Of a DNA stretch of 64,000 bases, positions 432 through 32,174 are shown piece after piece. The notes under the pieces are model-generated. The model was not told where the DNA came from. It saw only the letters and a list, made by a program, of their open reading frames with translations, and made no database searches. Positions within the stretch are counted from its first letter, which is position 1. Each line of letters starts with the position of its first letter. A program made the translations under genes and the position numbers. Source of the DNA: Patescibacteria group bacterium (lineage in GTDB: Bacteria; Patescibacteriota; Patescibacteriia; UM-FILTER-42-10); NCBI GenBank assembly GCA_041666845.1, contig JBAYGC010000003.1, positions 25,007-89,006 of the forward strand, written 5' to 3'.

Positions 432-722
432 TTACGCTGGCTTATATATAGTATAGTTACTTGGAACAATACTCTTAATTGGAAATTTGAATATTGGTGA
501 CAGTTTAAATTTAATATTATAAAGGGGATATTTCTTTATTGTTTTAAACTCTGCAGTGTAAATCTTATCCTCCAATTTTTCATCATAATCATCTATTAAT
601 GTAAATATTTCTATTGTATTAAAATCTATCTTATAATAAATACGAGGTCTTTTTGACCTAACAATATTACCAGAAATCTGGGTATAAAAATCTTTTAGAA
701 TTCTATTATTTTCCTCAGACAT
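432..722 (-). CDS. hypothetical small protein, probably co-transcribed with and upstream of 40..429 (2-bp gap)
   Basis: ORF of 96 aa, K/Y/I-rich, tightly coupled to the downstream ORF; together they form a two-gene module in AT-rich DNA. Confidence 0.3.
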   Translation of the reverse strand: MSEENNRILKDFYTQISGNIVRSKRPRIYYKIDFNTIEIFTLIDDYDEKLEDKIYTAEFKTIKKYPLYNIKFKLSPIFKFPIKSIVPSNYTIYKPA

Positions 723-813
723 AATTACCTCATACTCATTATACCATTAATAACTATCCACTTTATCCACAATCAAGTTATTTGTCAAATCATCCACCCT
801 AACACACATTTAT

Positions 814-1215
814 TTACTTGTTAACTTCCCTCTTCCACAAAACAGGGCCGATGGCGACACCGATAAATATCAAGTAAGCGCTCCACTGCCCGAACACCAC
901 CCCGGTCGTGCCGTTGCCGATCGTCACAACTAGTAGCATCACGACAATCATTAAAGACCAGATGATGCCGTAAGTCAGCGCGTGCCTGGCGGTTTCAATC
1001 GGCATTTTCCGGGAAACCCAGCCGGAGCAGAAAGTCATGGCGACAGCGATTACCAGTCCGACCCACCATGAATTTTCAAACGGCGTTTCCGACTGAGTGA
1101 TCATGGACATGATAAACAGCAGGACATTCACCAGAACATACAGTAATAATCCCCAGCCGAAAATTCTAAGAAATATTTTTCTGCGCATAGATATAGAGTT
1201 TAGTTGATTAATCAC
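814..1215 (-). CDS. hypothetical integral membrane protein (3-4 TM helices); GC-rich (~50%) relative to neighbours
   Basis: ORF of 133 aa with hydrophobic segments (LLLYVLVNVLLFIMSMI, VGLVIAVAMTF, WSLMIVVMLLVV). Its composition differs sharply from flanking DNA. Confidence 0.45.
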   Translation of the reverse strand: MINQLNSISMRRKIFLRIFGWGLLLYVLVNVLLFIMSMITQSETPFENSWWVGLVIAVAMTFCSGWVSRKMPIETARHALTYGIIWSLMIVVMLLVVTIGNGTTGVVFGQWSAYLIFIGVAIGPVLWKREVNK

Positions 1216-1372
1216 CTATTCCCCTATCTATGCTAATCATACGCCTAAATTGCCGAAAAAGAAAAATCTATCCAATTTGCCAAACCAAAAACCCAGCTAT
1301 TGCTGAAGTATCGGGACTCCTTCACCCGTATTCACGGGTTCGGAGTGGTTGCCGTTATTTTAGGGTTGCTGT

Positions 1373-1795
1373 TTATTTCAGTTCTTCCAGATAAGTTTTA
1401 ATAAAATTAGCGGTAGCCGTAATTGTTTCTGCTTTTGCCCCGCGCGGACTTTGTGCCACCCACATGGCAAAATTGTACAGTTCCGTATTATCCACCTTCA
1501 GCCACCTGTTGTTCATAAATAAGAAAGCCATCAATATTGTCATCGCTATTCTTTTATTGCCGTTTCTAAACGGATGATTCTTGATCAGTAAATAAAAAAG
1601 TACCGCCGCTTGCGTATTGATTCCTTTGTATAACGGCCTTTTGTTATATGTCTGAAAAGGCGTCTCCAAACAGCTCTCCAGGATATTGGGAAATCTGGTG
1701 GAAAATGCGGGTATCGGTTCATCATATGCCATCATTTCCTTCGCCAGTCTATAGGCGAGGTACTCTATTTCCATTAATGACAGTGTTTTGGTCAT
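1373..1795 (-). CDS. doc: Doc toxin (Fic/Doc family, death-on-curing type II toxin)
   Basis: Contains the Doc/Fic signature HPFRNGNKR (HxFx[DN][AG]NKR); ~140 aa, typical Doc length. Its ATG overlaps the TGA stop of the upstream HTH gene (ATGA at 1792-1795). Confidence 0.75.
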   Translation of the reverse strand: MTKTLSLMEIEYLAYRLAKEMMAYDEPIPAFSTRFPNILESCLETPFQTYNKRPLYKGINTQAAVLFYLLIKNHPFRNGNKRIAMTILMAFLFMNNRWLKVDNTELYNFAMWVAQSPRGAKAETITATANFIKTYLEELK

Positions 1796-2213: not shown

Positions 2214-2269
2214 CTTCCTTAGTTCTAAAAAGAGCAAACAATATAATATTAATTTCCGAGTTTCAGATA

Positions 2270-2366
2270 TTCCCTGAGCGAATCCCGTTCCCCGATCAAG
2301 TCGAGGACAAGTTTTGCGGGATGAGTCGAAGGGTGTAAACACTACAGTCCTTCGACGAGCTCAGGA
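2270..2366 (-). repeat. copy A of a ~90-100 bp palindromic repeat element (core: GTcCTGAGC..TCGAAGGAC..CTTCGA..CTCAGGGaATA), located in the rplL 3'UTR
   Basis: Shares termini and internal inverted repeats with copies at 3459-3544 and 13704-13804 in the same orientation (checked by eye). Confidence 0.6.
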
Positions 2367-2394
2367 CATATTACCTTTTCCCCAGTGACAGTAT

Positions 2395-2838
2395 CTATTT
2401 TAATGTTGCTGTTCCGCCAGCTGCTTCAATCTTCTTCTTGATTTCTTCTGCTTCTTCCTTTGGTACGCCTTCTTTAATAACCTTTGGCGCGCCGTCAACT
2501 AGATCCTTGGCTTCTTTCAAGCCTTTTTCTGTAACTTCTCTTACTACTTTGATTACGTTGATTTTGCTGTCACCGGTTGTGGTCAGTTCCACATCAAATG
2601 AAGATTTCTCTTCTGCTGCTTCGCCGGCTTCGGCTGCTGGCATTGCTCCCATCATCATTGGAGCGGCTGCGGATACGCCGAATTTCTCTTCCAGGATTTT
2701 GACCAGTTCGGCCAGATCCAGAGCAGTCATCTGCTCTACTTCTTCCACGAGTTTTTTAAACTTCGCAGGAACCTCTACTGCTTTTTTCTCTCCTGAAGCT
2801 GCCTCTGCTGGAGCTTCTTTCTTTACTTCTTCTGTCAT
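2395..2838 (-). CDS. rplL: 50S ribosomal protein L7/L12 (with ~20-aa N-terminal K/E/A-rich extension)
   Basis: Motifs [19 protein letters not shown] and the C-terminal domain [38 protein letters not shown] are diagnostic. Confidence 0.9.
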
Positions 2839-2890
2839 TTTTTTATTCCTTAATTAATGGCTTATTAAATAAATTGATTGATTACCATGG

Positions 2891-2918
2891 ATTCCCGCCT
2901 TCGCGGGAATGACATTTT
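2891..2918. repeat. REP-like small hairpin ATTCCCGC-CTTC-GCGGGAAT followed by GACATTT in the rplJ-rplL spacer
   Basis: Perfect 8-bp stem. Related GCGGGAATGAC / GAGAATGAC hairpins occur at 4440-4515 and 32153-32172. Confidence 0.45.
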
Positions 2919-2919
2919 A

Positions 2920-3444
2920 TTATGCTTTTTGCTCTTTAATGGCGTTTAGCGCATAGATGAACCCGCGCATATTGCCCTGCAGAACATTGACGATACCGAC
3001 CAGCGGTGCACGCAGACTACCGACGACCTGTGCCAATAGCTGTTCACGGCTCGGCAGGTTCGCCAGTTCCATTACTTTCGCCTGTTCTATATAACTGCCT
3101 TCCAGTATTCCGCCCAGGATCTGCAAAGTAACATTGTCTTTTTGGAATTTCTTCAGGATTCTGGCTGGAGCGACTTCGTCTTTGAAACCCATTGCAACTG
3201 CAATCTGCCCGTCCAAACCTTTGATATCCATTCCCTCAAGCTTCACTTCATCCAAAGCCCGCTTGATCAGGGTCTTTTTCGCGACATTGCATTCTACTTC
3301 TTCATCGCGGAGCAGTTGGCGCAAGTTTTCGAAACTCTTTACGTTTAAACCGGAATAGTTAATAAAAACAGCGGATTTCATTCCCGAAAGCCTCTCTACC
3401 AGTGTTTTTACTATTTCTTCCTTTTGTACTCGTGTTTTAGGCAT
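2920..3444 (-). CDS. rplJ: 50S ribosomal protein L10
   Basis: 174 aa, adjacent to and upstream of rplL in the conserved order; L10-like sequence (VFINYSGLNV..AKKTLIKRAL). Confidence 0.85.
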   Translation of the reverse strand: MPKTRVQKEEIVKTLVERLSGMKSAVFINYSGLNVKSFENLRQLLRDEEVECNVAKKTLIKRALDEVKLEGMDIKGLDGQIAVAMGFKDEVAPARILKKFQKDNVTLQILGGILEGSYIEQAKVMELANLPSREQLLAQVVGSLRAPLVGIVNVLQGNMRGFIYALNAIKEQKA

Positions 3445-3458
3445 GTTTTTTTCATTAT

Positions 3459-3544
3459 TCCCTGAGTGAAGTACCGCGCAAGCGGTACGTAATCGAAGGG
3501 TCTGGATTTTAATGTCCTTCGACTCACTTCGTTCGCTCAGGAAC
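3459..3544 (-). repeat. copy B of the palindromic repeat element, 15 nt upstream of the rplJ start codon (5'UTR)
   Basis: agttCCTGAGCGaacgaagtGAGTCGAAGGACatt..CCCTTCGAttac..cttcaCTCAGGGAATAATg in minus orientation. Termini are inverted repeats (ttccctgag / ctcaggaac). Confidence 0.6.
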
Positions 3545-3711
3545 TATTCATAATTAAAAAATCTGCGGTAATCACCACAGAAAAACAGCTTGTTTTGTAC
3601 CTCGGTAGGATTTACGGCCATTTTTGTGGCCACCTACTGTCTGTGGCGATATTTAGTTGTAATTCCCAGTTTACACTCTTAAAATAAATCGTCAAGTACC
3701 AATCAGGAAAT

Positions 3712-4395
3712 TTACCCGATTACCGTACCGGAAAACGGCTTTTTCTGCAAAAATCGTTTAAAGTTAGCCAAATTAGTGCCTTTCATCACCACCACCCGGA
3801 TCCCCGCTTTTTCTGCCCTCTTGGCAGCTACGGGATCAAACGGGGCGTTCATTCCCGGTACATATTTACCCCCGATTACTTTTTTGAACTCCTGCCAGGT
3901 CATCACTCCGATTCGCTTAGCGTCTTTGTATTTCCGGGGATCTTTGTCATAAACATGGGAAATATTGGAAAGATTGACCACGGTCTTGGCACCATACTGT
4001 TCCGCCAGAATCACCGCATCCAGATCGGAAGATGAGCCGGGTACATAGCCGGAGCCGATGATTATTTTCTTTTTGGTATTAATTTTCCGGTGGGGATTAT
4101 CTAATACTTTTTCGTAAGCCAGCGTGCCGAAGATTACCCTGATTAGTTCTGCATTCAACTTCGTGGCGGAGATTCCCAGCCAGTCCAGATTATCAGGAGA
4201 TACTTTAGTAACCTTTTCCGCGGCGGCGTTATATTTCCGGCAGACCTTCCCTCCTCCGGCTACAATAACGATCTTGGAATACTTGCTTTGATTTTTAATA
4301 ATCAGCTCACGGAATTTTTTCAGGAATACCCAGTTCACTTCATCAGGAACTATGATTGATCCGCCCAGGGAGATTATGACTGATTTTTTTTTCAT
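3712..4395 (-). CDS. pyrH: UMP kinase, archaeal-type amino-acid-kinase family
   Basis: 227 aa. Motifs VIISLGGSII..IVIVAGGGKVCRKY and GSGYVPGSSSDLDA match the glycine-rich loops of the aspartokinase/UMP-kinase fold. Confidence 0.6.
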   Translation of the reverse strand: MKKKSVIISLGGSIIVPDEVNWVFLKKFRELIIKNQSKYSKIVIVAGGGKVCRKYNAAAEKVTKVSPDNLDWLGISATKLNAELIRVIFGTLAYEKVLDNPHRKINTKKKIIIGSGYVPGSSSDLDAVILAEQYGAKTVVNLSNISHVYDKDPRKYKDAKRIGVMTWQEFKKVIGGKYVPGMNAPFDPVAAKRAEKAGIRVVVMKGTNLANFKRFLQKKPFSGTVIG

Positions 4396-4551
4396 AATTG
4401 TGTTTTTTAATTCATGGCAACTCTAAACAAATTCATCATTATTTACTTGTCATTCCGTACTTGATACGGAATCTAGTTGGAATGTAGATTCCCGGGTCAA
4501 GCCCGAGAATGACATTTTTGGGAAAACCGAATTTGTTTAGAGTAATGTTAA

Positions 4552-5601
4552 TCAATCTAAATATTTTGCTTTATTTTGCAGATGCTCGTCATAGGTCTTG
4601 CTGAATACTGTGGTGCCATCTTCTTTGGTTAAGAAATATAAATAGTCGCTGTCCTCTGGATAAATGGTAGCCACGATCGAATCCATCCCCGGATTGGAAA
4701 TCGGTCCCGGTGGCAGTCCCCGGTTCTCGTAAGTGTTGTATGGATTTTGAATTTCCGTATCGGCAAAAGTCGGTTGCAATGCACTTTTGCCCGTAATGTA
4801 GTTTACCGTCGCATCAGACTCCAGCGGAATTTCGTTTGCCATGCGCGTATAAAATATTCCGGCTGCTATTTTCTTATCCGCGGTCGTGCGCACTTCTTTT
4901 TCCACGATACTGGCTAAAGTAATAATATCATAAATAGTTTTTCCCTGACGTGAAATTTCGTCCCGCATCTCCTGTGTGAGCTTCACATCAAAGTTGTCCA
5001 GCATTTTTTCGATCAGGTGCGCCGGGTCAGAGTTTTTAAAAATACGGTAAGTGTCCGGAAAGAGAAATCCCTCCAGCCCCTGATCCACCGGCTTGCTCGA
5101 AAGGAAGTCGTAGGTTTTGTCCGGAATGATTGAATGTGAATCAACAGTATTCACGACCGTTAAAAATTCATCAATATATTCGCTTTTGGATATTTTTCCG
5201 TCAGCCTCGGCAAAATCCGCCATGTATGTCGCAATCTCGGTACTGGACCAGCCTTCCACAATTGTTACCAGTCGTTCCCTGGACAGTGCGTCGCCGGACA
5301 CCAGCAGATTTGCCAGCTCCATCATGTTCAGATTCTGCGGAATATAATAATCCCCTGCCTTCAACTTGCTTTCATAATGTTTGAGCCAGATATAAGTGCG
5401 GAATATAAAATCATTTCTGCTCAGACCCTCCGTCTCCAGATTAGCACTGATTTTTTTTACACCTTCGCCGGATTCAATGATAAAAAGTTTTGCCTCAGCA
5501 TCGCTGGTTGCTTTGGCATTGATCTGATAATTAAAATAAAACAAGCCGGCCAAGCCGATAAGTATTATGATGCTGATAATAAAGAGTACAATTTTTTTCA
5601 T
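4552..5601 (-). CDS. mltG: endolytic murein transglycosylase MltG (YceG family)
   Basis: N-terminal TM anchor, conserved GLPPGPISNPG block and YceG-like length (349 aa). Confidence 0.8.
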   Translation of the reverse strand: MKKIVLFIISIIILIGLAGLFYFNYQINAKATSDAEAKLFIIESGEGVKKISANLETEGLSRNDFIFRTYIWLKHYESKLKAGDYYIPQNLNMMELANLLVSGDALSRERLVTIVEGWSSTEIATYMADFAEADGKISKSEYIDEFLTVVNTVDSHSIIPDKTYDFLSSKPVDQGLEGFLFPDTYRIFKNSDPAHLIEKMLDNFDVKLTQEMRDEISRQGKTIYDIITLASIVEKEVRTTADKKIAAGIFYTRMANEIPLESDATVNYITGKSALQPTFADTEIQNPYNTYENRGLPPGPISNPGMDSIVATIYPEDSDYLYFLTKEDGTTVFSKTYDEHLQNKAKYLD

Positions 5602-5678
5602 CCCGTTAGAAATTCCTGTATTTAGTAATAAAATATATTCCCGTATCCCACCCGTTAGTAATGATAATTTCTAACGGG
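5602..5678 (-). promoter_or_regulatory. 5' leader of mltG carrying the inverted repeat CCCGTTAGAAATT ... AATTTCTAACGGG (plus an internal CCCGTTAG), ending directly at the ATG
   Basis: Half-sites at 5602-5614, 5651-5658 and 5666-5678; the same architecture is found at asnS (52565-52656). Confidence 0.45.
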
Positions 5679-5729
5679 ATTCATCCGATATTAATTTCTA
5701 GATTAATTATAAATGATATTCTCTAACGT

Positions 5730-6818
5730 TTATAGGTATTTTTCGTTCTCTTTGTTCTTCTGCAATTCTTCTACAATCTTCTTCGCTTCATCCGACCGTT
5801 CTCTGGGGCACACCAGCAGTGCGTCATCCGTATCAATAATCACCATGTCATCCAGACCAATGGTGGCAATAACTTTATCTTTATTTCCGTAGATCATGCA
5901 GTCGGTAGTGTCCATGGGTATTACATTTCCTTTTACTAAATTGTCACCCTGATTGTTTGGTAATAGATCTTTGATCGTATGCCATTTGCCCAGATCGCTC
6001 CAGCCGATTCGATTGGAAACACACATCGCTATTTTTTCTGCCTTGTCGGTGATGGCAGTTTCGATCGACATTTTTTCCAGCGCAGAATATATTTCAGCAA
6101 TCTTCTCTTCCTGTCCACCAAGTTTCAAAAGCTCCACAATCTCCCGGCACGCTTCCAGTATTGCCGGCTGGTATTTTTCAAATAATTTAATAATTGTTGA
6201 GAGTTGCCAGATGTACATGCCGGTGTGGTAGAAGTAACGGCCGGAAGCAATCAGCTCTTTGCAATAATCCAGATCCGGCTTCTCCACCCAGTCCGCAACT
6301 TTAAATATCGCTTCTTCCCCTTTTTCCTGCAGTACGTCTCCGGATTTAATATAACTGTATCCGGTGTCCGGGTAGTTCGGTTTGATCCCCGGCGTCATAA
6401 TGTATTCCGGATTTTCTTTCAGGAAAATTTCCGCGGTCTGAAGCAAAGTTCGGAAAGCTTCCGGGTCGGTGATGTAATCATCAGACGGCAAACTGGCGAC
6501 TACTTCATGATCCGAAAACCGCTCCGCGATCAGAACGCTCTCCAGACAAATCGCCGGTCCAGTATTCTTGCTGGCGGATTCCGGAATAATATTTTTTTCG
6601 GAAACATTCGGCAAATATTTTTTTACCAGATGCTTCACCGATTCATTGACTGAAATAAAAAGATCGTCCTCAATATTTATTAAAGGGGCGATTCTGTCTT
6701 GTGTGTCCTGAATTAAAGCTTTGTCGCTGGCGATTGCCTGAAACTGTTTCGGATTATTTTTTCTGCTGAGAGGCCACAGCCTGGTACCTACTCCGCCGGC
6801 GCGAATAACTATCTTCAT
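5730..6818 (-). CDS. manC: mannose-1-phosphate guanylyltransferase (sugar nucleotidyltransferase, GDP-mannose pyrophosphorylase-like)
   Basis: N-terminal IRAGGVGTRLWPLSR nucleotidyltransferase motif; 362 aa, ManC/CpsB-like. Confidence 0.7.
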   Translation of the reverse strand: MKIVIRAGGVGTRLWPLSRKNNPKQFQAIASDKALIQDTQDRIAPLINIEDDLFISVNESVKHLVKKYLPNVSEKNIIPESASKNTGPAICLESVLIAERFSDHEVVASLPSDDYITDPEAFRTLLQTAEIFLKENPEYIMTPGIKPNYPDTGYSYIKSGDVLQEKGEEAIFKVADWVEKPDLDYCKELIASGRYFYHTGMYIWQLSTIIKLFEKYQPAILEACREIVELLKLGGQEEKIAEIYSALEKMSIETAITDKAEKIAMCVSNRIGWSDLGKWHTIKDLLPNNQGDNLVKGNVIPMDTTDCMIYGNKDKVIATIGLDDMVIIDTDDALLVCPRERSDEAKKIVEELQKNKENEKYL

Positions 6819-6857
6819 GTGATTAGTTTAATTAGCAGTGAATAATTATTATTAATA

Positions 6858-6981
6858 AATTCTAAACCCTAAGCCCTAAATCCTAAATAAATTACAAACG
6901 GTATTGCTTTTCTCGATTTGTAAATTGCGATTTGAAATTTTGGATATTATTTGGAGTTTAGAATTTAGGATTTAGAATTTT
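6858..6981. repeat. imperfect ~30-bp inverted repeats built from degenerate CCCTAA/TCCTAAAT units flanking a nested palindrome (ATTACAAA..TTTGTAAT)
   Basis: aaattctaaaccctaagccctaaatcctaaat at 6858-6889 versus reverse complement of atttggagtttagaatttaggatttagaattt at 6950-6981. Lies in the intergenic region between pcm and manC. Confidence 0.4.
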
Positions 6982-6989
6982 TCAAAACA

Positions 6990-7616
6990 TTATCCTTCTC
7001 TATCAGAGATCAGCGGTACAAACTGGAAACCGGGATAACTTTTGGTTTTGATTTTATCCGGCGCCTGTTTTTCCACCACCACGATATCCTGCACGGCATC
7101 GCCGATCGGAATTACCAGTTTACCACCCACCTTCAATTGGTCAATCAGTGCCTGCGGAATTTCCCGCGCTGCCGCCGCCACGATTATTTTGTCATAAGGC
7201 GCGTATGCCCTCAGACCCTTCGACCCGTCACCGTACGTATGGGTGATATTGATAAATTTATATTTCTTAAGATTCTCTTCCCCGAATTTTTTCAGTTCTT
7301 CAATTCGCTCAATGGCGTACACGTGCCCCTGATCACCGACTATTTCAGCCAGTAGTGCGGTCTGCCAGCCGGACCCGGAACCCACATCCAGTATCCTTTC
7401 TCCTGCTTCCGGCTCCAAAACCTCCAACATAAAAGCCACCGTCATCGGCTGGGAGTTGGTTTGTCCATGCCCGATATGCAAAGGGGCGTTAACCGCCTCC
7501 TTGTCTTTCATGTTTTCCGGCAGAAAATCACGTCTTTTTACCCTATAAAAGGCATTAATTATCTCGGGATTACGCAAATAGCCCTGTCCAATCAGGTCTT
7601 TTACCAGGTTCTCCAT
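6990..7616 (-). CDS. pcm: protein-L-isoaspartate O-methyltransferase
   Basis: SAM-binding motif ILDVGSGSGWQTALLAEIVG and PCMT-like N-terminus (LIGQGYLRNPEI..FYRVKRRDFLP). The ORF extends to 7706, but the ATG at 7616 (MENLVKDL) fits PCMT family N-termini. Confidence 0.8.
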   Translation of the reverse strand: MENLVKDLIGQGYLRNPEIINAFYRVKRRDFLPENMKDKEAVNAPLHIGHGQTNSQPMTVAFMLEVLEPEAGERILDVGSGSGWQTALLAEIVGDQGHVYAIERIEELKKFGEENLKKYKFINITHTYGDGSKGLRAYAPYDKIIVAAAAREIPQALIDQLKVGGKLVIPIGDAVQDIVVVEKQAPDKIKTKSYPGFQFVPLISDREG

Positions 7617-7772
7617 GGTTGTTTTATGCATGAATATCATATTCATATGTATGCTTAGTTTATCATCTTTTCGTGAAAAATAGAAATAAAAGAAAAAGTT
7701 ATCCACAGGTCATCAATATTGGCTAATATATAGTTAAAATTAGCTATATTTATCCAGATCAAATCGATTATG

Positions 7773-7801
7773 TTGACATTTTATATATGTTGTGCCATAA
7801 T
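7773..7801 (+). promoter_or_regulatory. sigma70-like promoter P1 of the giant surface-protein gene (TTGACA-17-CATAAT)
   Basis: TTGACA 7773-7778, 17-nt spacer, CATAAT 7796-7801. Confidence 0.4.
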
Positions 7802-7804
7802 CTA

Positions 7805-7832
7805 TTGACAAATTTTGTAATTGTGCTATATA
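7805..7832 (+). promoter_or_regulatory. sigma70-like promoter P2 (TTGACA-16-TATATA with TG extension)
   Basis: TTGACA 7805-7810; tgcTATATA 7824-7832; about 100 nt upstream of the ATG at 7933. Confidence 0.4.
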
Positions 7833-7932
7833 TAGCATGTTACTAAAAATATAAAACTCTGCCTGGCGACCGCTAGAAGTTACCGGCAGTACTTGAAAAA
7901 TAAATAATCTAATCATTAGCACTAACCACACA

Positions 7933-10900
7933 ATGAACGCTAATCATTACAACTCGAACCCGAAGAAACGGGGGAAGTTTTATCGTGTCGTCAACATTAT
8001 TGTCATGACGGCTTTTTTATTTAATATGACCGCAACTCAGGGGCTTTTAATGCTGTCCCCTGCTCAAGCGCAGGCAACACAGGACAAATATACTCTGTGC
8101 CATGCTACAGGTAGCGATACTAACCCTTGGGTTAGGATTCATGTTCCAGAGTCTGCCTTACCCGCACACCTTGATGGAAATGGCACTCCCCTGGCAGGAC
8201 ATGAAGACGATGTATATTTAGGCTTGGATAATGCCGATCTACTGCAATGTCCCACACCACCAGTAAGCTGTCCGAATGTTTTTGGGGACAATTTTGAGAG
8301 TTATTCAGTAGGCACAATTCCATTACCCTGGTCGCAAAATTATGGGGTAACAATAGAAGATATAAATGGAACGCATGAAAAAATTGCAAAAATGAATTCC
8401 AGTGAAAGTCATGATGAAGAAAGAATGTGGACCACGATTGATACTTCAGGCCGTACTAATCTAAAACTGCGTTATGATCAAAAAACTGATGGTCTTGAAA
8501 GAAATGAGCAGGATGTTTTTACCTTAAAATACAAAATCAACAGTGAATCCAGTTGGAATGTATTGTACCAAACAGATGTTAATGACAGTTGGGATCATAT
8601 GGTCTTCAACTTACCTAATGCAAACCAAATCACTATTAGCTTTGGCCTACTAGGCACAAATGAAAACGATAAGGCGTTTGTTGATAATGTAACCTTATCC
8701 GGCTGTGTTGCAAACGTATGCGGTGACGAAACAGTTGGCGGTGACGAAGAATGCGATGATGGAAATGTAAATGACGGTGACGGATGCAGTGCAACTTGTA
8801 CTATTGAAACCTGCACTGACACAGATAATGATACAATCTGTGACGATATAGATAACTGCCCATCAATACCAAACCCAAGTCAAAACGATGCCGATGCTGA
8901 TGGTGTCGGTGATGCATGTGATATGTGCGCAGGTGCCGATGATGCATTAGATAATGAAGGTGATGGAATACCAAACGGTTGTGATAATTGTCCTTGGGAA
9001 CCAAACTGGGATCAAACAGACACAGATAACGATGGTGTAGGGGACGCGTGTGATGAACCGGTTTGCGGTGATGGCAATTTAGATGAACCACAAGAAGAAT
9101 GCGACGACGGAAATGGTGAAAATGGTGACGGATGTTCCGCACAATGTACATTAACCTATAATATCCAAGGACAGAAATGGAACGATGAAGACAATGACAG
9201 TTATTGGGATGATAATGAAAGTCCTCTTGCAGGAGTAGAGATAACATTAGATGGCGGAAATAGCGGAACAGTATACACAAATGCGAACGGTGAATACGAA
9301 TTTTCCGGTTTGCTTCCAAATAACTACACCGTTTGCGAAGTAGTTCAAGATGGATGGGAACAGTCGCTACCTGGCACGGGTTCAGGAGACTGTTACGAAA
9401 TAACACTGCCCGATGACGGTCAAACCACTTATAATTTTGGCAATCATCAGATAGATAATGTTACAATCGTCGCATATAAAATTGTCTGCACAGAAGAATC
9501 CGACCTACCTAACTGGGGAAATGGCGGAGAGAACATTACTGCGGCAACTGCCCAGAATTGGGTAGACAGCCACGATTCATGTGAATTTGAATCAGATTGG
9601 AATTTCCAATGGCGTGTAGATAGTGGCAACCCATACAATCCAGGCGATAATACTGGTGAATCTGTTGGCACCGATTGGACAACATTTGGTCTTACCGATG
9701 GAAATGGAATGACATCCACTGAAATTGATTTTGATCTCGCAGACAAATTTTGGTTCCGTGAAGTTATGCAGCCAGGATATATTCCTTTCACCTATAACGT
9801 TGCAGGAAATAACAGCAATAATGTTTCAGCCGAATTCTACTGCAGCTCAGATGTCTTAAACTATGACAACTTAGAATGGATTGATAATATGACTCCGGGC
9901 GAAACATATCATTGTGTTGCCTGGAACGTTCAAGCTCAACCGACTAAAGGTGACCTGACAATCTGTAAATACAATGATGTTGACAGCGATGGTGAATATT
10001 CCGACCTGATTGACACTCCTCTGCAATGGGAAATGAATGTTGAAGCTATGTCTGGAGTAGCGGATGGTAGTATTTGGGGTACCGGTACAAACAGCGAGAC
10101 CGGTTGTGTTACGCTTGCTGATATGTGGCTCGGAGAATATCGCGTCACTGAAACAGCTGTAGACGGTTGGTCACCAACCAATCCGGTAAGCGGAGATCAA
10201 TCAATAGAACTTACTGCCGAAAACCCAGATCAGACTGTTCGATTCCTAAACGAGCAGGTTTATGACCTGCATGGTTACAAATGGAATGATTTGGACGGTG
10301 ATAGATATCCTGATTGTAATCCGGTTAAAGGAGCTGAACTGACAACAGCCGCTACTCCCCCGCTGGATTGTGAACCAAGACTTTCAGGTTGGACAATCTT
10401 TATTGATGAAAATGAAAATGGAATTCTGGATGGCGAGGAACAGTCAACTATTACTTCAGATGATCCGGAACACTTAGGCTGGTATTGGTTCGAAGATCTC
10501 CCAGCCGGCGATTATCGTGTCTGTGAAGTACAGCAGTCTGACTGGGCACAAACCTATCCTCAAACCGCTGACGGCTGTCACACAGTAACACTCCCGACAA
10601 TGACCGAAGGTGACACCTGTATTTCAGAATATGCTCTCAATGGAGTAGATAACGCGCCTTCAATCTGTAACTTTGGTAATATTCACGACAAAGGCGATTT
10701 GACAATCGTTAAATACGATGATGATGAGAATCTGATGGCCGAAGTAGAATTCCAAATTGATGGTGAAACATACTGGACTAATGGTAATGGCGAAATCGTA
10801 CTAGAAGATATTTTGACCGGCTATCACATTGTAGAAGAAATGGGCATGGATAATTATACCTTTACATCTGTAACTGGTGATAATTGCACAAACAGCAATC

Positions 10901-13296
10901 CGTCAGCCGCAAATGTTGTGGAAGACGGAACAACCTGCACATTCACCAACACCCGCAATACTGGTGATGTGAGTGGTATGAAATATGAAGATTTGAACGG
11001 TAATGGAATCCGTGATTGCGCAATTCCTGCAAAAAGTCTTGGAATAATTAATGTAAATGATTCCGAAGATCCGGAAGTGTGTGAACCAGCGCTCCCCGGT
11101 TGGACAATCAATCTTGCTTTTAACGCATGTTCTGAAAACAGCTCTGACTACGACTTGAGCAATGATGGAGAACTAGATCTCTCAGACGTTGCTATGATGG
11201 CGCAGTATCTGGAAACACCAAATAATCCGCAGGGCGACATGAATGATGACGGTTTAACGAATCAAGCTGATTTCAATTGTTTTTCCGCCATATACACTGA
11301 CAGTTCTCTGCCGGCTATTGCTGATAAGTCTGACGTGACCGATGAAGATGGTACCTACAGCTTCAAAGGTCTGACCCCTGGATCTTACAACGTCTGGGAA
11401 ACACTAGATAATAATCCTGGCGATGCTCACGGGGGTTGGATTCAAACCAGTACGCCTGTTGTCCATACCGTATTAATCGGCGCCGGTGATGAAATAACCG
11501 GTGAAGACCAAAATTTCGGTAACCAATATGTCGGTTACTGCGGTGATGAGGTTGTGAACAATGGTGAAGAATGTGATTACAATAGTAGTTATGGAGTTCC
11601 TGAAAACTACCATTGTACTCAAGAGTGCCAATTGCAGGAAGATCCTTATTACTTAGTTGATGGTTATAAATATGAAGACTTAGATGGAAATGGCACTTGG
11701 AATGAAGCATATGAACAGCCACTAAACGGCTGGGAAATCTGTTATGCCTATGAACCATTGGACAGAGTAGAAGACATTGCATTCTCATTTGACTCCTTTG
11801 CGCTCGGAATTATGGAAGATACTGATAATTGCGTAATGACCGGCAGTGGCGAAGAATGGCCAGATGGTTATTATCAATTCAAATTCTACAACCCGGGGCA
11901 TGTTACTCTAACTGAAACACCACAGCCGGGATCTGGATATACCCAGACCGAACCTGTAGCCGGAGCACCTTGGGAAATAGAAATGGCGGAAAACCCTGAG
12001 TTACCGCAGTACAACTTCGGCAACCAGCCGGACTTCAGCGTTAATATTGAAAAATCAGCCAGCGTTACTACAATCGGACAAGCTGAGCAATTCGGTTATA
12101 CCATTAACTGGGGATTAACCGGGATAATAACTGCTGATCAAGTTATAATCACTGACACTCTACCCGCTGATGTTTCATTTGTCTCTGCAACAGACAGTGG
12201 AATTTATGACAGTGGTACGCATACCGTAGCTTGGACGCTCAATAATATTGCTCCGGGAACCACCGGTAGCTTCGGTGTAACTGTTCAAGCACTAAGTAAT
12301 GTGACTAACGGCGAGGAATTGTTAAATACCGTAGATATCTTGGGAACCAAATATCTGGAAGCTCCAGCCGAAGCCAGTGCATTAGCAGGTCCGGTACTTA
12401 CCAGAATTGACCGTTCCGACACAGCAAACGCAACTGTAACCGTAGTTGTTCCGGATGTTGCCGCTCCTCTACTGCAGATTACTAAAGATGCCAGCGTGGC
12501 TACGGCTGACGCCGGCGACACTGTAACCTATACTGTAGTCGTAACCAACGTTGGCTCTGCAAAAGCGGTAAATGTCATGGTTGATGATACCCTGCCTGCC
12601 GGAATGACCTTTGTGGACGGTGGCGGAACAACTGTGGCGTTAGTACTTGGTGATATTGAGATCGGGCAGTCCAAAACAACCACTTATGACGTGAAAATAG
12701 CGGATAACGCGACGTCCGGTTCTTATGAGAACTTAGCAGTCGCTTCTGCCGACAATCATGATGATATATCGGACTCCGCGATTGTCGAGGTTGAAAACCC
12801 GGTTGTTCTGGGTGAAACCACTGAAGCGGAATTGGCACTGATCAAAACCGCCGATGTTGAATACACCAACCCGGCCGGAACAGTGGAATACACGCTGACT
12901 GTAACCAATAACGGCACGGAAGACGCCCAAAATGTCGTCCTGACTGACCAATTACCGGACGGATTCGTATTTGAAGGCACAACTGATGTCGTAAAAGTGT
13001 GGAATTTCAGCACAATCGCTGTCGGTGCAGCCGAAACCGTTACCTATAAGGCAACCGTAAACGCTAACACTACAGCAGGAATGTACGAAAACGTGGCATT
13101 AGCCAAAGCGGACAATTCCGACGATGCCGGTGCTTCTGCTATAGTAGAAGTACGTGCCGTATCGGTCTTGGGTGCGCTGGTCGATACCGGTACCACCACC
13201 CGCGACTACCTCCTGTATATCGGCGGCGTGATGCTGGTGATCTCTGGAATCTGGTTTTTTACCAGAGAAAAGAACCTGTCACACCACTCCAAGTAG
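7933..13296 (+). CDS. giant secreted surface protein (1787 aa): signal peptide, Cys-rich repeat, TSP type-3 Ca-binding repeats, SdrD/Cna B-like domains, dockerin-like repeat, DUF11 repeats, C-terminal LVDTG sorting-like signal plus TM plus basic tail
   Basis: Signal peptide ..LLMLSPAQA; C-x-DGN-x-DGDGCS repeat; D-x-D-x-DG-x-x-D-x-C/DNCP repeats; multiple [14 protein letters not shown] SdrD-B-like modules; [16 protein letters not shown] dockerin-like; [29 protein letters not shown]11 repeats; C-terminus [32 protein letters not shown]. Confidence 0.8.
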
Positions 13297-13316
13297 GCTA
13301 GAATCTTCGGACTTTA

Positions 13317-13357
13317 AACACCCCCACACCCATTAATGGGTTTGGGGGTGTTTTGAT
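13317..13357 (+). terminator. rho-independent terminator of the first giant gene
   Basis: aaCACCCCCACACCC-atta-aTGGGTTTGGGGGTGtttt hairpin plus T-run, 20 nt after the stop. Confidence 0.7.
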
Positions 13358-13703
13358 TTACCGGATTAATCTACTTGCCAAAATTAGATGAAATATGGTC
13401 TAGCCTATTGACAAAAAAACTGTAAACTGTAAGATGTAGGAGCTATAAATAGTTCTTTAGGCGTTGCACATTATCATGGAGGAAGAACACGAGCTTATGC
13501 TAGTGTTTGGGGGGAATAGAAAACCAACAAAAGGTTATAAAAAAACCAAAATAAAAGAGTACTAGAAGCATACACCTTTGAAAATCGCTATATTTAGCGA
13601 ATTTGTAACTTGTTGTTGGTTTTTTGTATTCATAAAAAACCTTGCAAATTAGCACATTTAATATGAAATAATTCCCTCTTGATAGGGACTAGAAACAAGA
13701 ATA

Positions 13704-13804
13704 GTTCCTGAGCGCCTGTGGTGAGCACAGTCGAACCAAAGTCGAAGGACAATATAACAAATACTTCGACAGAGTTTATCCCGATGAATATCGGGACTCA
13801 GGGG
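13704..13804 (+). repeat. copy C of the palindromic repeat element, 30 nt upstream of the second giant gene
   Basis: aGTTCCTGAGCGcctgtgGTGAGcacaGTCGAAccaaaGTCGAAGGACaat..aCTTCGAcag..gACTCAGGGGATAATt. Confidence 0.6.
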
Positions 13805-13833
13805 ATAATTAAAAAATAATTTACCAAAATACA

Positions 13834-16800
13834 ATGAAAATTAATCTACTACCTAAGAAGAAAGCGGTATGGAAAATGACCTATAAATCATTCCATATTG
13901 TTGCGTTAATTGCCCTAATATTTAATATGTCTTCAGTTGGGGTATTTTTTACCCCGAATACAGCTCTTGCTGCCGAAAAAACATCGGAAACAGTTGATAA
14001 AACCACCTGTGCGGAAGGTGAAAAATGCGAAGATACCGGCACAATCCTGATCAAAAAATTCCTGGATCTGGATAGGGATGGCGTTCGTGATACCAATGAA
14101 ACATTACTGCCAAACTGGCATTTTACTATTGTAAACGGTGCATATAGTACTGAAGGTGCTACCAACAGTGAAGGTGTGCTGACTCTACTTGATATGCCAA
14201 TTGGTACCTACCAGGTAACTGAAACACTGCAGCCGGGCTGGACTAATACCACACCCCTGACCCAGTCAGCAGTTGTTACGAAGGACAACACAACTATTCT
14301 GCATTTCGGTAATATTGAGCAACATATTGGAAACCTCAGAATCAAGAAATATAACGACTTAAACAGTGATGGCGTCAAACAGACAAACGAACCGTATATG
14401 ACCGGCTGGCATTTTGACGTTACACAAAACGGCCAATTTATTGCTGACGGTAATACCGGAGAAGACGGTGATTGGCTGATTATTGAAAACCTGCCGGTTG
14501 GAATATATACAGTTACAGAAACCCAGCAGGACGGGTGGATAAATACTGATCCGGGCACCAACCCAATCAAGAAAGATGTTAATGTTACAGAAAATACTAT
14601 TACATATCCCACAAATGTGTGGTTCGGTAATGCTGAAATTCCAGGCGAATGCAAATTGGAAATAACAAAATCAGTAAATAAGACCGAAGCAGAGCCTGGC
14701 GATACGCTGGAATACACTTTGTCCTATGAAAACGTCGGAACAGCAGACTGCACCGGTGGTGGAGTACAGCTTTTTGACAATCTGGACAGCAGGCTGACAT
14801 ACAACGGCACTCACTCACAGGATAATACCGATCATGATATAACCTTTGAAGGTAATTTTGACGGAACTGATCCGGTAGCCAATGCACACGTGGTCAGTCC
14901 GGGCGAATCCGGTCATGTCACATTTCAGGCAACTATCACTGAAGATCTGAAGTGCGGTGAAAATAATATTCCGAATAAATACAGAATCTGGAGCAATGAA
15001 ACCGGTGATATCTGGAGCAATGAAGTGAACACAAGCGTTTACAAAGAATGCTACGGATCACTGAAAGTTATCAAGCATGTTGATTTCGGTGAAGCAACAC
15101 CTGATATGTGGGAATTTACAGTTCCGGGATACGGAACCCAGTCCCCTATTGACGGTCAAGATTATGTGATCTTCTCCCAGCTTCCTGAAGGACTATACTC
15201 AGCAACAGAAAGCACAATCCCCGGTTACCATCAGGTATCTTCTACCTGCAACAACGTACAGGTAAACCCGGGCGAACAGGCAGAATGCGTCTTCCACAAT
15301 ACCAAGGATACTTTCTGCAAAATGAATTTCACAAAATCTGTTGATAAAGAAAATGCATTACCAGGCGATGTCGTTACCTATACTCTGAATTATGAAAACA
15401 CCGGCGACGCAGACTGCACCGGTGGTGGCGTGAAAATATATGATGATCTGGATAATAAATTAACCTATGTCGATAATTCTCTTACCGGTAATGAATACAA
15501 CGGTAATGGCGACGGAATATCTCTGTTCGAAGAATTCGACGGCGTTAATCCGCTGGCCAACGCACATGAAGTAATCCCCGGTGAATCGGGTGTCATTACC
15601 TTCCAGGCAACAATTACCGATGATTTGGAATGCGGTGAAACCATCATCCCGAACAAAGCCAAACTCTGGAGTAATGAAACAGGGTATTTCTGGAGTAATG
15701 AAGTAAACACAACTGTCTTCAATCAATGCTACGGATCGTTGAAGGTAATCAAATACGTGGATGAAGGCGATGCAACTCCTGATATGTGGGACTTCACGAT
15801 TGCCGAACACGGGACACTGTCCCCTGCTGAAGGCGATAACTATGTTGTCTTCACACAGATGCCGGAAGGATTCTATGCGGCATCAGAGAGCAATCTGGCG
15901 GGCTACCACCAGGTATCCTCAACCTGCGATAATGTTGAAGTTATCACTGGCCAACAGGCGGTTTGCGAAATCCACAACACAGTTGATCACTATGATATTA
16001 ACGGATACAAATGGAACGATCTGAACGGCAACGGTGAATGGGATCAGAGTGAACCGGGAAAATCCGGTTGGACAATCAATCTGAATACTTTTGAAGGAAC
16101 CCTTCTGGATTCAACCGTTACCTCAGATAATAACGAAGATCTTGGTCACTATGAATTCTCCGATTTACTACCTGGCATCTACCAGGTTTGCGAAGCGCAA
16201 AGTGAAGGCTGGTACCAGACCTATCCGTCCGAAAACAACGGCTGCCATTTTATCTACCTCGGACCAAATGCCGATAATGAAGTAATGTCCTATAACTTCG
16301 GTAACACTGGTTATGGTGAAATTTCCGGAGCAAAATTTGACGATGCCAATGGTAATCACATCTGGGATACCGGCGAACCGGGACTGGAAGACTGGACCAT
16401 AGCGCTCCAATCCAGCTGTTCTGAAGTATTTGCTGACTACGACTTAGAATCTGATTCGGTAATCAACCTGTCAGATGTAAGCCTGTTTGCTGAAAAATAC
16501 GCCCTAGGCAATACACTAGTTGATCTAAACGGTGATGCGGTCGTGAATAACTATGACCTTAACTGCTTCAAAAACGTACTCAGCGCGACCCCGGAAACTA
16601 TGACGGAAAATCCGATCATTACAAAGACAACTGATGCTAGCGGTTATTATCAATTTACCGGTTTGGAAACAGGCGCGTACAATGTATCTGAAGTACAGCA
16701 GACCGGCTGGGCACAAACATTCCCAGAGAGTAACGGAGGCGCTTACGGACCGATTGTTATTACTTCCGGAAAAGTATCAACCGATAATGACTTCGGTAAC

Positions 16801-31248: not shown

Positions 31249-31322
31249 TGGCGGGGGTGGAAGGTATCGAACCCTCGTCTCAGGTTTTGGAGACCTACAT
31301 TCTACCATTGAACTACACCCCC
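31249..31322 (-). tRNA. tRNA-Trp (anticodon CCA)
   Basis: GGGGGTG-TA-GTTC-AATGGTA-GAAT-G-TAGGT-CTCCAAA-ACCTG-AGAC-GAGGG-TTCGATA-CCTTC-CACCCCC-G-CCA; 74 nt. Confidence 0.85.
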
Positions 31323-31419
31323 ATTAGCCAAATTTTATTTTCTCTAAGTAACTGGGAAATGAAGTAATTCGGATTCTACCATTGCCACCGCCTTCGGCGG
31401 AAACGACACCCCCAACATT

Positions 31420-31551
31420 CTATTTGGTTTCCTTATGGACAGTATGTTTTTTGCACCATTTGCAATGCTTCTTGATCTCAAGTCTTTCCTTAAGAGTTTT
31501 TTTGTTCTTTTTGGAATGATAATTAATGCGCTTGCATTCTGTACATTCCAT
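31420..31551 (-). CDS. rpmG: 50S ribosomal protein L33 (43 aa)
   Basis: Translates to [43 protein letters not shown]; matches the L33 consensus (ECTECK..NY...KN.....LEL.KYC..C.KHT.HKE.K). Below the ORF-track length cut-off. Confidence 0.8.
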
Positions 31552-31619
31552 TTTTATTAGATTATCTTGTGACATCTGTATTTTCTAATATGATTAATTA
31601 ATTTATATATGAAGATCTA

Positions 31620-31736
31620 CCGAGCAAATCAGGAGCGCACCCAGGCAGTTGCGAAGCAAATGCATCGGGGAGCACAGATTTGCAAAGAATAATGGGGCCC
31701 CCAAAAAACGCACAGCGGTTTTTGGGGAAAGGGGCA
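31620..31736 (+). repeat. tRNA-associated repeat RptA, copy 3 (between tRNA-Thr(UGU) and the rpmG promoter)
   Basis: CCGAGCAAATCAGGAGCGCACCCAGGCAGTTGCgaaGCAAaTGCatcggggagcacagatttgcaaag..GGGGCCCCCAAAAAAcgcacagcggTTTTTGGGGAAAGGGGCA. Confidence 0.55.
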
Positions 31737-31801
31737 CAAATGCGGAAGGCGGAGTGAATGCAAATTTTGCATGCACGTAGCCTGAAGCATTTGATGACCC
31801 G

Positions 31802-31876
31802 TGGAGCCGAGAAGAGGATTCGAACCCCCGACCTGCTGTTTACAAAACAGCTGCTCTACCACTGAGCTATCTCGGC
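31802..31876 (-). tRNA. tRNA-Thr (anticodon UGU)
   Basis: GCCGAGA-TA-GCTC-AGTGGTA-GAGC-A-GCTGT-TTTGTAA-ACAGC-..TTCGAAT..-TCTCGGC-T-CCA; 75 nt. Confidence 0.8.
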
Positions 31877-31924
31877 ATCATTGGCGGGCAAAACAGATGC
31901 TCTGCCAGCTGAACTAGGTGGTCA

Positions 31925-32010
31925 TGGTGGGCCGGGAGGGATTCGAACCCCCGAAGGCTAAAGCCAACAGATTTACAGTCTGTCCCGTTTGACCGCTTCG
32001 GTACCGACCC
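31925..32010 (-). tRNA. tRNA-Tyr (anticodon GUA), long variable arm
   Basis: 86 nt; anticodon stem ACAGA/TCTGT with loop CTGTAAA; variable arm TTGGCTTTAGCCTTC; T-loop TTCGAAT; acceptor GGGTCGG/CCGGCCC. Confidence 0.8.
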
Positions 32011-32034
32011 ATGCATAGTTTTAACGAACCCAAA

Positions 32035-32151: not shown

Positions 32152-32174
32152 TCCCGCTGAGCGGGAATGACCCG

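Follow-up and report, generated by a model that had tools for sequence, protein, structure and literature searches.

Short palindromic repeats of bacterial genomes are usually dismissed as lineage-specific clutter. The known REP and REPIN families are lineage-specific and mostly inherited vertically; some E. coli REPs have been proposed to benefit the transcripts that carry them, and the E. coli BIMEs bind IHF and gyrase. A REPIN is a doublet of REP units which together form a hairpin (PMC3337134). The window analysed here, a whole stretch of 64,000 nucleotides from a CPR bacterium (Patescibacteria), holds three copies of a palindrome with this kind of layout. They belong to a large and unnamed family of palindromic repeats that is gained and lost between close relatives in many phyla.

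Results

The three copies lie where the preliminary description had placed them, at 2263-2373 on the minus strand (copy A), 3451-3549 on the minus strand (copy B) and 13699-13812 on the plus strand (copy C), the outer A/T pairs being counted. They share the boxes CCTGAGC, GTCGAAGGAC, CTTCGA and CTCAGG, and all have the same orientation relative to their host genes, lying in sense within predicted transcripts. Copy A, a complete doublet, is situated 28 nt past the stop codon in the 3' UTR of rplL and is followed by two intrinsic terminators, whose reported tandem arrangement (2209-2197 and 2169-2144) was borne out. Copy B occupies the 5' UTR of rplJ between the attenuator hairpin of the L10 leader and the ATG (3444), ending 15 nt before it, while copy C is found 30 nt upstream of the ATG (13834) of a gene for a 1285-aa DUF11/SdrD-type surface protein; both distances agree with those given before. 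The copies are not an assembly artefact, since an ENA assembly made independently (L122) contains an identical copy B. The source contig has three copies in about 80.5 kb, all inside 11.5 kb.

The pattern TCGAAG-N5-35-CTTCGA was matched three times against 0.06 expected, CCTGAG-N70-100-CTCAGG twice against 0.04 (copy B is too short for this spacing), and the strict unit motifs four times against 0.025. A covariance model built mostly on copies from other organisms gave matches in the 64 kb solely at the three copies, with E = 2e-5 for copy A and 0.01 and 0.02 for the other two, the next best having E = 0.5. Two candidate further copies, at 30445 and 61935, match the 3' end motif yet are not copies. 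Copies A, B and C fold back far better than shuffled sequence on both strands (z from -3.6 to -5.4); the predicted RNA stem-loops of the window copies have energies of -36 to -43 kcal/mol, and the long hairpins of window and family copies together range from -31 to -53 kcal/mol. No U-run follows the window copies, AAUAAU or AAUAUC being present instead, so they do not qualify as intrinsic (Rho-independent) terminators.

It had been supposed that copy B coincides with the position of an L10 autoregulatory leader. This is wrong, since a separate ribosomal protein L10 leader, which is not part of the repeat, is present upstream of it at 3547-3664 on the minus strand (RF00557; score 57.9 bits, gathering score 44); it ends in a terminator-like hairpin (3581-3562), and a promoter-like site lies at 3695-3668. 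This leader is intact; copy B stands downstream of it and does not replace it. The two share one 5' UTR, but the repeat at 3451-3549 has no RF00557 match, sub-threshold matches included, and is positioned past the leader's terminator-like hairpin.

The repeat is an inverted doublet of a hairpin unit of about 19 nt, NN-CUGAG-(loop)-CGAAG-N'N', in which two units are separated by a variable spacer and both are enclosed by a lineage-specific outer stem. The dinucleotides flanking the arms are complementary in 90 of 106 copies (shuffle mean 18, maximum 31), and in 76 of the 91 arms outside the selection by the search pattern. In 54 minimal copies the pair 61-80 is UA 24 times, CG 19 times, GC eight times and other in three, and the pair 62-79 is GC in 31, CG in 16, AU in four and other in three; the competing pairs of the long hairpin are formed in just 17-24 of the same 54. 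Double changes were seen at all seven of the seven pairs of the outer stem. Compensatory changes maintain both the unit stem and the outer stem. [quoted passage not shown] The 54 minimal copies are hairpin-forming doublets, and each window copy is likewise composed of a 5' unit and a reverse-complement 3' unit; the unit itself, as its flanking pairs indicate, is an imperfect palindrome. Spacers vary in length and sequence, from 8 to 25 nt in the minimal copies, where they differ even among copies of one genome, and those of the window copies (13-15 nt) are mutually unrelated. Isolated units fold weakly, with -3.4 to -7.3 kcal/mol as RNA and -1.7 to -4.1 as DNA, and the long hairpin is far more stable, which implies that the unit fold would need a protein or a transient single-stranded state. 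A Y-R covariation within the unit (the variant CCGAGC...GTCGAGG in L125, L130 and L066) has too few examples to be counted, and orientation together with wobble-pair asymmetry is uninformative as a test of RNA versus DNA because the compensations are symmetric.

The window copies carry additional hairpin modules nested within the loops of their units. The 5' unit of copy A (2348-2366, minus strand) is the minimal hairpin TC-CTGAG-CTCGT-CGAAG-GA, which has the strict unit motif and the flanking pairs that covary across the family. Its 3' unit (2272-2333, minus strand; CC-CTGAG...CGAAG-GG on the plus strand), also with the strict motif, has a 45-nt module nested in the loop (2280-2324, minus strand), a hairpin ATCCCG...CGGGAT broken by a degenerate reversed unit, GTTCCCCGATCAAGTCGAGGAC on the plus strand. 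An uninterrupted form of this module, ATCCCGCAAATGCGGGAT, was found at 2491-2529 of a close relative (L128). The orthologue of copy A in this relative lies at about 1395-1520 (units 1408-1470 and 1485-1514); it shares the spacer of copy A and differs in its nested modules. In copy B the 5' unit TC-CTGAG-C GAACGAAGTGA GT-CGAAG-GA (3515-3542, minus strand) matches the strict motif, and the 3' unit CC-CTTCG...CTCAG-GG (3460-3500, minus strand) carries the hairpin module GTACCGC-TTGC-GCGGTAC (3471-3488), one stem pair of which is A-U, U.G or C-G across the window, L124 and L128. The 5' unit of copy C (13706-13749, plus strand), with the strict motif as well, contains the nested module CTGTG-GTGAG-CACAG...TCGAACCA, and a near-identical module is present in the rplJ copy of L128; the 3' unit TA-CTTCG...CTCAG-GG (13762-13803, plus strand), whose flanking pairs are imperfect, bears the hairpin module TCCCGAT-GAAT-ATCGGGA (13779-13796). 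Copies in this CPR lineage swap or lose modules.

Comparison with empty sites in related genomes, which had also been proposed, gave clean presence and absence. The relative L128 is 97.7% identical to the window in L10 and 98% in L12, and at window position 1205/1206 it has a minimal doublet as a 61-nt insert (2682-2742 by alignment), the flanks GGTGAT and TAAACTC being alignable. A second empty site, at 1350/1351, corresponds to 147 nt of L128 including a doublet at 2414-2529; this site lies in the duplicate of the rplL 3' end, by which an HTH-Fic cassette is bracketed, and at least one additional L128 copy arose from segmental duplication, not transposition. The 5' UTR of rplJ has no copy in L123, one in the window and in L128, and two in tandem in L124; L123 has no element after rplL either, and a paralogue about 89% identical to the L124 copy is situated at an unrelated locus (L132). 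The same is observed in the katG-fbp spacer of Mucilaginibacter, which is filled in L033 and L101 and empty in L141, the difference being about 103 nt. At window 1205/1206 and in Mucilaginibacter the doublet was gained or lost as a whole, and neither of these clean junctions has a direct repeat, so the flanking target-site duplication of a classical MITE is not seen. The matches GAATA/AATAT next to the copies were considered as such a duplication and rejected; these A/T-rich matches are part of the element, where they belong to the outer stem, since the L128 paralogue, which stands at another locus, has conserved them. Palindromes can vanish by replication slippage, and absence is thus no proof of excision.

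The exact 23-base box pattern was found in at least 120 genome loci, and 113 of 136 copies have the 3' CTCAG box as well, a feature outside the search pattern. Full doublets are spread over at least 11 phylum-level groups, isolates included, with the boxes found in Patescibacteria, Pseudomonadota, Bacteroidota, Chloroflexota, Planctomycetota, Actinomycetota and other groups. Some genomes contribute several loci, with five in Allosphingosinicella and eight in one Phycisphaerae MAG among the matches listed. All copies with checked flanking genes are intergenic, the three of the window among them; for the rest, stop-to-stop ORF calls in high-GC loci are unreliable. The copies are found beside gyrB, gpmA, katG, msrA and many other genes, and their orientation relative to the flanking genes is unbiased (++ 20, +- 17, -+ 15, -- 14); antisense copies are present in CPR too (L132, after msrA, and L114). 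Most family members are plain hairpins without a conserved junction, the distance from box to box ranges from 2 to more than 30 nt, and some Mucilaginibacter copies carry a T6 run of their own. In all CPR copies the boxes are perfectly conserved and the spacers and loops differ; this invariance could also reflect a function at the level of the host.

The preliminary description called the element novel, which holds only in so far as no name for it turned up among Rfam families, annotations or papers. The window copies have no match in Rfam 15 (hammerhead, twister, pistol, hatchet and HDV-like families included) at gathering score or at E <= 10, nor do 18 family loci have one; the hammerhead core and the integron attC site (R''/R' boxes), compared by eye, do not match either. 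The repeat copies in Sphingomonas replicons are unannotated, and searches of the literature by sequence string and by topic, whose incomplete coverage makes this weak evidence, returned no name for the family. A phage vector was considered and rejected, with no blastn match in phage genomes and four pattern matches in 2.9 million viral contigs.

When the ORFs up to 1 kb from the 120 loci listed were clustered all against all, no neighbour gene recurred, nor did a transposase that would indicate a parent IS; an IS30-like gene adjoins one copy (L130), which we take as chance. A tblastn search with E. coli RayT over the window and the family loci, about 1.1 Mb in all, gave only E > 1; distant RAYT groups could escape such a search. 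The weak match in L040 is not a RAYT, and the gene between the two copies of L041 is gpmA. Similar repeats of the 'VILSEAKDL type' reportedly accompany small GIY-YIG genes; a motif scan found no GIY-YIG ORF in the window or at the 120 loci listed, and this link was dropped.

Discussion

The reading that best accounts for these results, to which we assign a probability of roughly 60%, is that the copies are non-autonomous REPIN-like repeat DNA that is co-transcribed as stable stem-loops. The earlier proposal of a MITE-like mobile palindrome is kept in part: the family is dispersed, multi-copy and palindromic, with clean presence and absence in relatives, but it shows no target-site duplication, no parent IS was found near the loci listed and its form is the inverted doublet of the REPIN type. 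Spread and reshuffling of the copies would take place as DNA, by way of single-stranded intermediates whose units each fold up individually, and the folded unit might be recognised by a trans-acting enzyme, modelled on a Y1/HUH RAYT-like transposase, whose gene lies elsewhere or no longer exists. Further change probably comes from segmental duplication or recombination between copies. Copies may persist at harmless positions, such as past the L10 attenuator, ahead of the terminators of rplL and within a surface-protein gene's leader. Once transcribed, a copy would form a very stable stem-loop that may incidentally protect or slow the mRNA, without being a dedicated regulator. Counting against the REPIN-like reading are the failure to find a transposase in the window and the family loci, the low density of copies here and the conservation of the unit across phyla, as well as the segmental duplication in L128, the weak fold of the isolated unit and the invariant CPR boxes.

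It is unlikely, in our opinion, that the element is instead a general cis-acting RNA stem-loop kept by the host to stabilise mRNA, to halt RNase or offer it a processing site, or to modulate translation. Such a role would fit the three sense copies inside predicted transcripts, their very stable folds, the invariant CPR boxes with varying spacers and the A-U, U.G and C-G series in the module stem, and the Mucilaginibacter copies with a T6 run do resemble portable terminators. However, the orientation of the family relative to genes is random, with antisense copies even in CPR, L123 does without the rplJ copy and L124 has two, the strands do not differ in how well they fold, the window copies lack a U-run, and covariation favours the weak unit hairpins over the long RNA helix. 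The narrower suggestion of the preliminary description, that a shared regulatory RNA couples the expression of rplJ/rplL with that of the giant adhesin-like gene, was not supported and has very little chance of being right. Three UTR copies of one orientation within 11.5 kb, two of them just upstream of start codons, seem to invite it, but the same orientation at three independent sites has a chance probability of 0.25, the rplJ copy is missing or doubled in relatives, antisense copies occur in CPR, the family stands beside unrelated genes without orientation bias, and rplJ is already regulated by its intact L10 leader.

Random orientation, intergenic position, two-fold symmetry and two conserved pairs of boxes would all suit a DNA architectural site, a palindrome or cruciform bound by a nucleoid protein, gyrase or a recombinase and acting on local topology or recombination and not on mobility; boxes shared across phyla would then fit a conserved host protein. 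We find this improbable, as box spacing of 2 to more than 30 nt is awkward for a dimer on duplex DNA, covariation within the arms requires intrastrand pairing and occupancy differs between near-identical genomes; we also know of no candidate binding protein. The multi-branch predicted folds with conserved boxes, and the CUGA...GA motifs that could make tandem G.A pairs, might suggest a structured non-coding RNA gene or a self-cleaving ribozyme. This is hardly credible in view of the Rfam result, negative for all known ribozyme classes, of the plain hairpins that make up most of the family, of the strand symmetry of the element, and of the fact that the branches of the window copies are variable nested insertions.

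The compensatory evolution of a thermodynamically weak unit hairpin points to recognition by a protein. It is possible, although we would sooner doubt it than assert it, that the unit hairpin serves as the module by which a system working across phyla recognises its substrate for mobilisation or processing, be it through a new ssDNA transposase, a new ssDNA nuclease or a conserved host factor that binds hairpins. If so, the family would constitute a REPIN-like replicator of pan-bacterial range, unlike the lineage-restricted REP-RAYT systems, with an unusual capacity for nesting modules within its loops and for exaptation, such as into a helix of the L10 leader in Kerfeldbacteria or into a portable terminator in Mucilaginibacter. 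If a partner enzyme is found, the family would provide a tractable and very widespread system for movement of the REPIN type, and it would account for recurrent spurious ORFs as well as for hairpins left unannotated in thousands of genomes. For annotation, the structures beside rplJ, rplL and the adhesin gene are best treated as repeat elements and not as riboswitch-like regulators.

Among the known systems, Correia/NEMIS, ERIC/IRU, RUP, BOX and the Rickettsia RPE resemble the family in being dispersed elements of 60-130 bp that are often co-transcribed in UTRs as stable stem-loops and vary in presence between strains, but their sequences are unrelated, they are restricted to a genus or family, and Correia and RUP make target duplications of TA or other sequences. 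With the 'peel and paste' elements of the IS200/IS605 type and their PATE and MITE derivatives the family shares small imperfect end hairpins, in place of terminal inverted repeats recognised by a DDE enzyme, and insertion without target-site duplication; it differs in that no tnpA or tnpB is nearby, the two end hairpins are mutually reverse-complementary, and two clean junctions do not establish a conserved target tetranucleotide. The REPINs of the REP-RAYT system (Bertels & Rainey 2011; PMC3116915, PMC3337134) likewise consist of two short, imperfectly palindromic, inverted units with a variable spacer. Like them the family is multi-copy and, at the loci checked, extragenic, its entire doublets are gained or lost without target duplication, and some copies with T-runs look co-opted as terminators. 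Unlike REPINs, it showed no RAYT in the 1.1 Mb searched, and it has a low density of copies in the CPR contig and hairpin modules nested within the loops of its units. The unit itself, with a stem of seven positions, two G/A juxtapositions and a loop of 5-6 nt, is not the GC-rich core of a REP and does not have the GTAG head. In place of lineage-specific REPs inherited vertically together with a RAYT, the same two boxes have been kept across at least 11 phylum-level groups, and even in a CPR bacterium with its streamlined genome the copies turn over between genomes that are nearly identical.

Results

With their outer A/T pairs included, the three copies extend over 2263-2373 (minus strand; copy A), 3451-3549 (minus strand; copy B) and 13699-13812 (plus strand; copy C), and inspection of the sequence bore out the placing of all three in the preliminary description. 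In transcript sense they read (A)GTTCCTGAGCG or GTCCTGAGC, then GTCGAAGGAC, a 13-15-nt spacer, (C)CTTCGA and CTCAGGG(A/G)ATA. The inner inverted repeat TCGAAG-N5-35-CTTCGA was observed three times in the window against 0.06 expected, and the outer CCTGAG-N70-100-CTCAGG twice against 0.04. On either strand, all three copies fold much more strongly than their shuffled counterparts (z -3.6 to -5.4), and their transcripts should form stem-loops with energies between -36 and -43 kcal/mol. None of them is followed by a U-run, and Rfam gave no match to them even at E <= 10. Searches for the boxes under relaxed criteria, and a covariance model with filters off, revealed no fourth copy in the 64 kb, and there was none in the 7 and 9.4 kb scanned past the window ends on the same 265-kb Patescibacteria contig (JGI 3300037810). 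Copy B is identical in an independent ENA assembly, which rules out an assembly artefact.

Copy A follows the rplL stop codon and precedes two intrinsic terminators that are distinct from it. A boxA-like motif, TTGCTCTTTTTAGAA (2223-2237, minus strand), between this copy and the terminators is conserved in two relatives (L123, L128), also at sites that lack the element. Copy B had been placed where an L10 autoregulatory leader would be expected, but the genuine leader is separate (RF00557, 3547-3664, minus strand; Rfam, 57.9 bits). This leader is preceded by a promoter-like site (3695-3668, minus strand) and ends in a terminator-like hairpin with T6 (3581-3562, minus strand). Copy B sits between this attenuator and the rplJ ATG and is therefore not the L10 leader. 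Copy C is within the leader of the second of two adjacent DUF11/SdrD-type giant genes, and only this gene has the repeat in its leader. The two surface proteins (1787 aa, 7933-13296, and 1285 aa, 13834-17691; both plus strand) together contain DUF11/CLIPPER, SdrD_B, SpaA and CARDB-type repeats.

The rplJ-rplL pair is separated from rplKA and rpoBC and preceded by an amino-acid-kinase gene, an arrangement conserved in relatives. Its spacer carries a different hairpin, TGTCATTCCCGCGAAGGCGGGAATCC (2886-2916, minus strand), of a type that is often dispersed as a repeat in other bacteria; weak Rfam matches to FtrB and RAGATH-12 are merely this hairpin. The S10-spc ribosomal operons, just past the far end of the window, hold zero copies of the repeat. 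Seven tRNA genes are present in the window, four clustered at 31.2-32.3 kb (31252-32250, minus strand) and the others at 22551, 41957 and 54956.

At least 120 stretches in the genome collection contain the exact pattern common to the three copies, CCTGAGC-N0-30-GTCGAAGGAC-N8-25-CTTCGA. Among the matches listed, from isolates and MAGs, are Sphingomonadales, other Alpha-, Beta- and Gammaproteobacteria, Bacteroidota, Chloroflexota, Planctomycetota, Actinomycetota, Acidobacteriota, Armatimonadota, Gemmatimonadota, Cyanobacteriota and one Uhrbacteria MAG. A 3' CTCAG box is present in 113 of 136 copies, though the pattern did not demand it. The outer stems are lineage-specific. At least 11 phylum-level groups have full doublets, and units in direct tandem as singlets are also present (L075, L025, L109). 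The family was not found in phage genomes and is nearly absent from viral contigs. The family loci searched gave no Rfam match, copies on Sphingomonas replicons carry no annotation, and our literature search found no paper naming the repeat. Clustering of the ORFs near 120 loci revealed no recurrent neighboring gene. One copy, in a Flavobacterium anhuiense spacer (L003, 5000-5600), lies in a dense array of repeats of other types, among them a 300-nt tandem duplication and hairpins of the form AAACCCGACAGGTTTTAAAAACCTGTCGGGTTT.

The pairs flanking each unit and those of the outer stem covary. When minimal copies are tabulated block by block, the dinucleotide just 5' of CTTCGA changes together with the one just 3' of CTCAG (TG/CA, CC/GG, CG/CG, GG/CC, CA/TG, TC/GA and TA/TA, for example), and both dinucleotides are on one arm. 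Of 106 copies, 90 show Watson-Crick pairing at both flank pairs (shuffle mean 18, maximum 31), and the complementarity is also found in 76 of 91 arms unconstrained by the search pattern. In an alignment of 54 sequences, pair 61-80 is UA in 24, CG in 19, GC in 8 and other in 3, and pair 62-79 is GC in 31, CG in 16, AU in 4 and other in 3, while the rival pairs of a simple long hairpin are formed in just 17-24 of the 54. The covariation within one arm indicates that each arm is a hairpin unit, NN-C-U-G-A-G-[C nn G U]-C-G-A-A-G-N'N', whose facing G/A and A/G could, in our own inference, be tandem sheared pairs. The outer stem shows compensatory changes at 7 of 7 pairs. The whole element is an inverted doublet of such units with a spacer and an outer stem.

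Relatives share the gene order around rplJ-rplL (PCMT, NTP-transferase, YceG, AA-kinase, rplJ, rplL). Ahead of rplJ there is no element in L123 (L10 80% identical), one in the window, one in L128 and two in L124 (78%), where the pair is arranged in tandem and the 5' units are identical. After rplL, too, L123 lacks the element. L128 comes from almost the same organism (L10 97.7%, L12 98% identical), and despite these near-identical proteins its rplJ copy has a spacer and modules unlike those of the window. Comparison with empty sites, envisaged earlier, gave two clean ones in the window, where L128 has two further doublets: 1206/1205 (61-nt insert in L128) and 1351/1350 (147-nt insert). The larger insert sits in a duplicated rplL-3'-end segment bracketing an HTH-Fic cassette, which indicates that this L128 copy arose by segmental duplication. 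In the window, ACAGCAACCCTAAAATAA just after the stop codon of the Fic-like gene (1355-1372, minus strand) copies the rplL 3' end AACAGCAACATTAAAATAG (2395-2413, minus strand), which suggests that the HTH_17-Fic cassette (1373-2046) entered the rplL 3' UTR and that the flank was duplicated; in L128 an element is present in each of the two duplicates. L132 has a paralogue of the L124 copy, about 89% identical to it with loops included, at a different locus, after msrA and antisense.

The CPR subfamily is modular, with extra hairpins nested within unit loops in the window, L124, L128 and L130-L132. Copy A matches a minimal 68-nt paralogue (L128, 2673-2740) except for a 45-nt module, a hairpin which is uninterrupted at L128 2491-2529 but into which, in the window, a degenerate reversed unit is set. 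In the L128 orthologue of this rplL copy it is the opposite arm that has a module, of 47 nt, and the 5' module of copy C is found again in the rplJ copy of L128. In Kerfeldbacteria (L125, 9858-9897) a variant unit CCGAGC...GTCGAGG, that is TCCCGAGC...GTCGAGGGG with C-G in place of U-A, forms one helix inside the L10 leader, which may be exaptation or insertion into a leader loop. At L130 an IS30-like transposase gene (HTH_38 and rve; 564-1529, minus strand) lies 156 nt from a doublet (297-408) that also holds a nested variant unit, a single case and probably a coincidence.

Presence and absence were also seen in Mucilaginibacter. The katG-fbp spacer has a copy in M. gossypiicola (L033) and M. 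rubeus CGMCC 1.15913 (L101), while in M. rubeus CP071882 (L141, KatG 96% identical) exactly about 103 nt are missing there and both flanks align with the filled sites; no target-site duplication was found at this junction. A third strain, Mucisp86 (L140), has a different hairpin with a T-run at the same spot, which shows the site to be an insertion hotspot. Mucilaginibacter copies (L033 3893-3980, L101, L001) have their own T6 run, follow fbp on the strand of that gene and look like portable intrinsic terminators.

Discussion

These results fit a non-autonomous REPIN-like repeat, copies of which would spread, recombine and vanish as DNA, with insertions in UTRs tolerated. The MITE-like mobile palindrome suggested in the preliminary description is supported in part: the repeat seems to be mobile, yet strictly speaking it is no MITE. 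Computed folds are weak for lone units and of much greater stability for the long hairpin; selection to keep the unit stem therefore implies a protein-bound or transient single-stranded state. Such a state would fit a model in which the two end hairpins are gripped by a dimeric Y1 transposase. The approximately 1.1 Mb examined yielded no RAYT (the Y1/HUH-type transposase of known REPIN systems), no GIY-YIG gene and no other gene that recurs.

It is possible that the stem-loop is selected by the host for a function as RNA, to which the invariant boxes, the sense orientation of all window copies and the T-runs on the Mucilaginibacter copies point. However, the orientation of copies relative to flanking ORFs is random family-wide (++ 20, +- 17, -+ 15, -- 14), antisense copies occur in CPR, the element is dispensable at orthologous sites, and covariation favours the weak unit fold. 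The proposed coupling of ribosomal and adhesin gene expression found no support, and the repeat is not a gene-specific regulator.

Three things are unusual about this REPIN-like repeat: its unit is shared across phyla, its modules are nested, and no transposase has been identified for it. Conservation of the unit across phyla is atypical for REP-RAYT systems (PMC5581495). The doublet architecture is that of REPINs as defined in PMC3337134.
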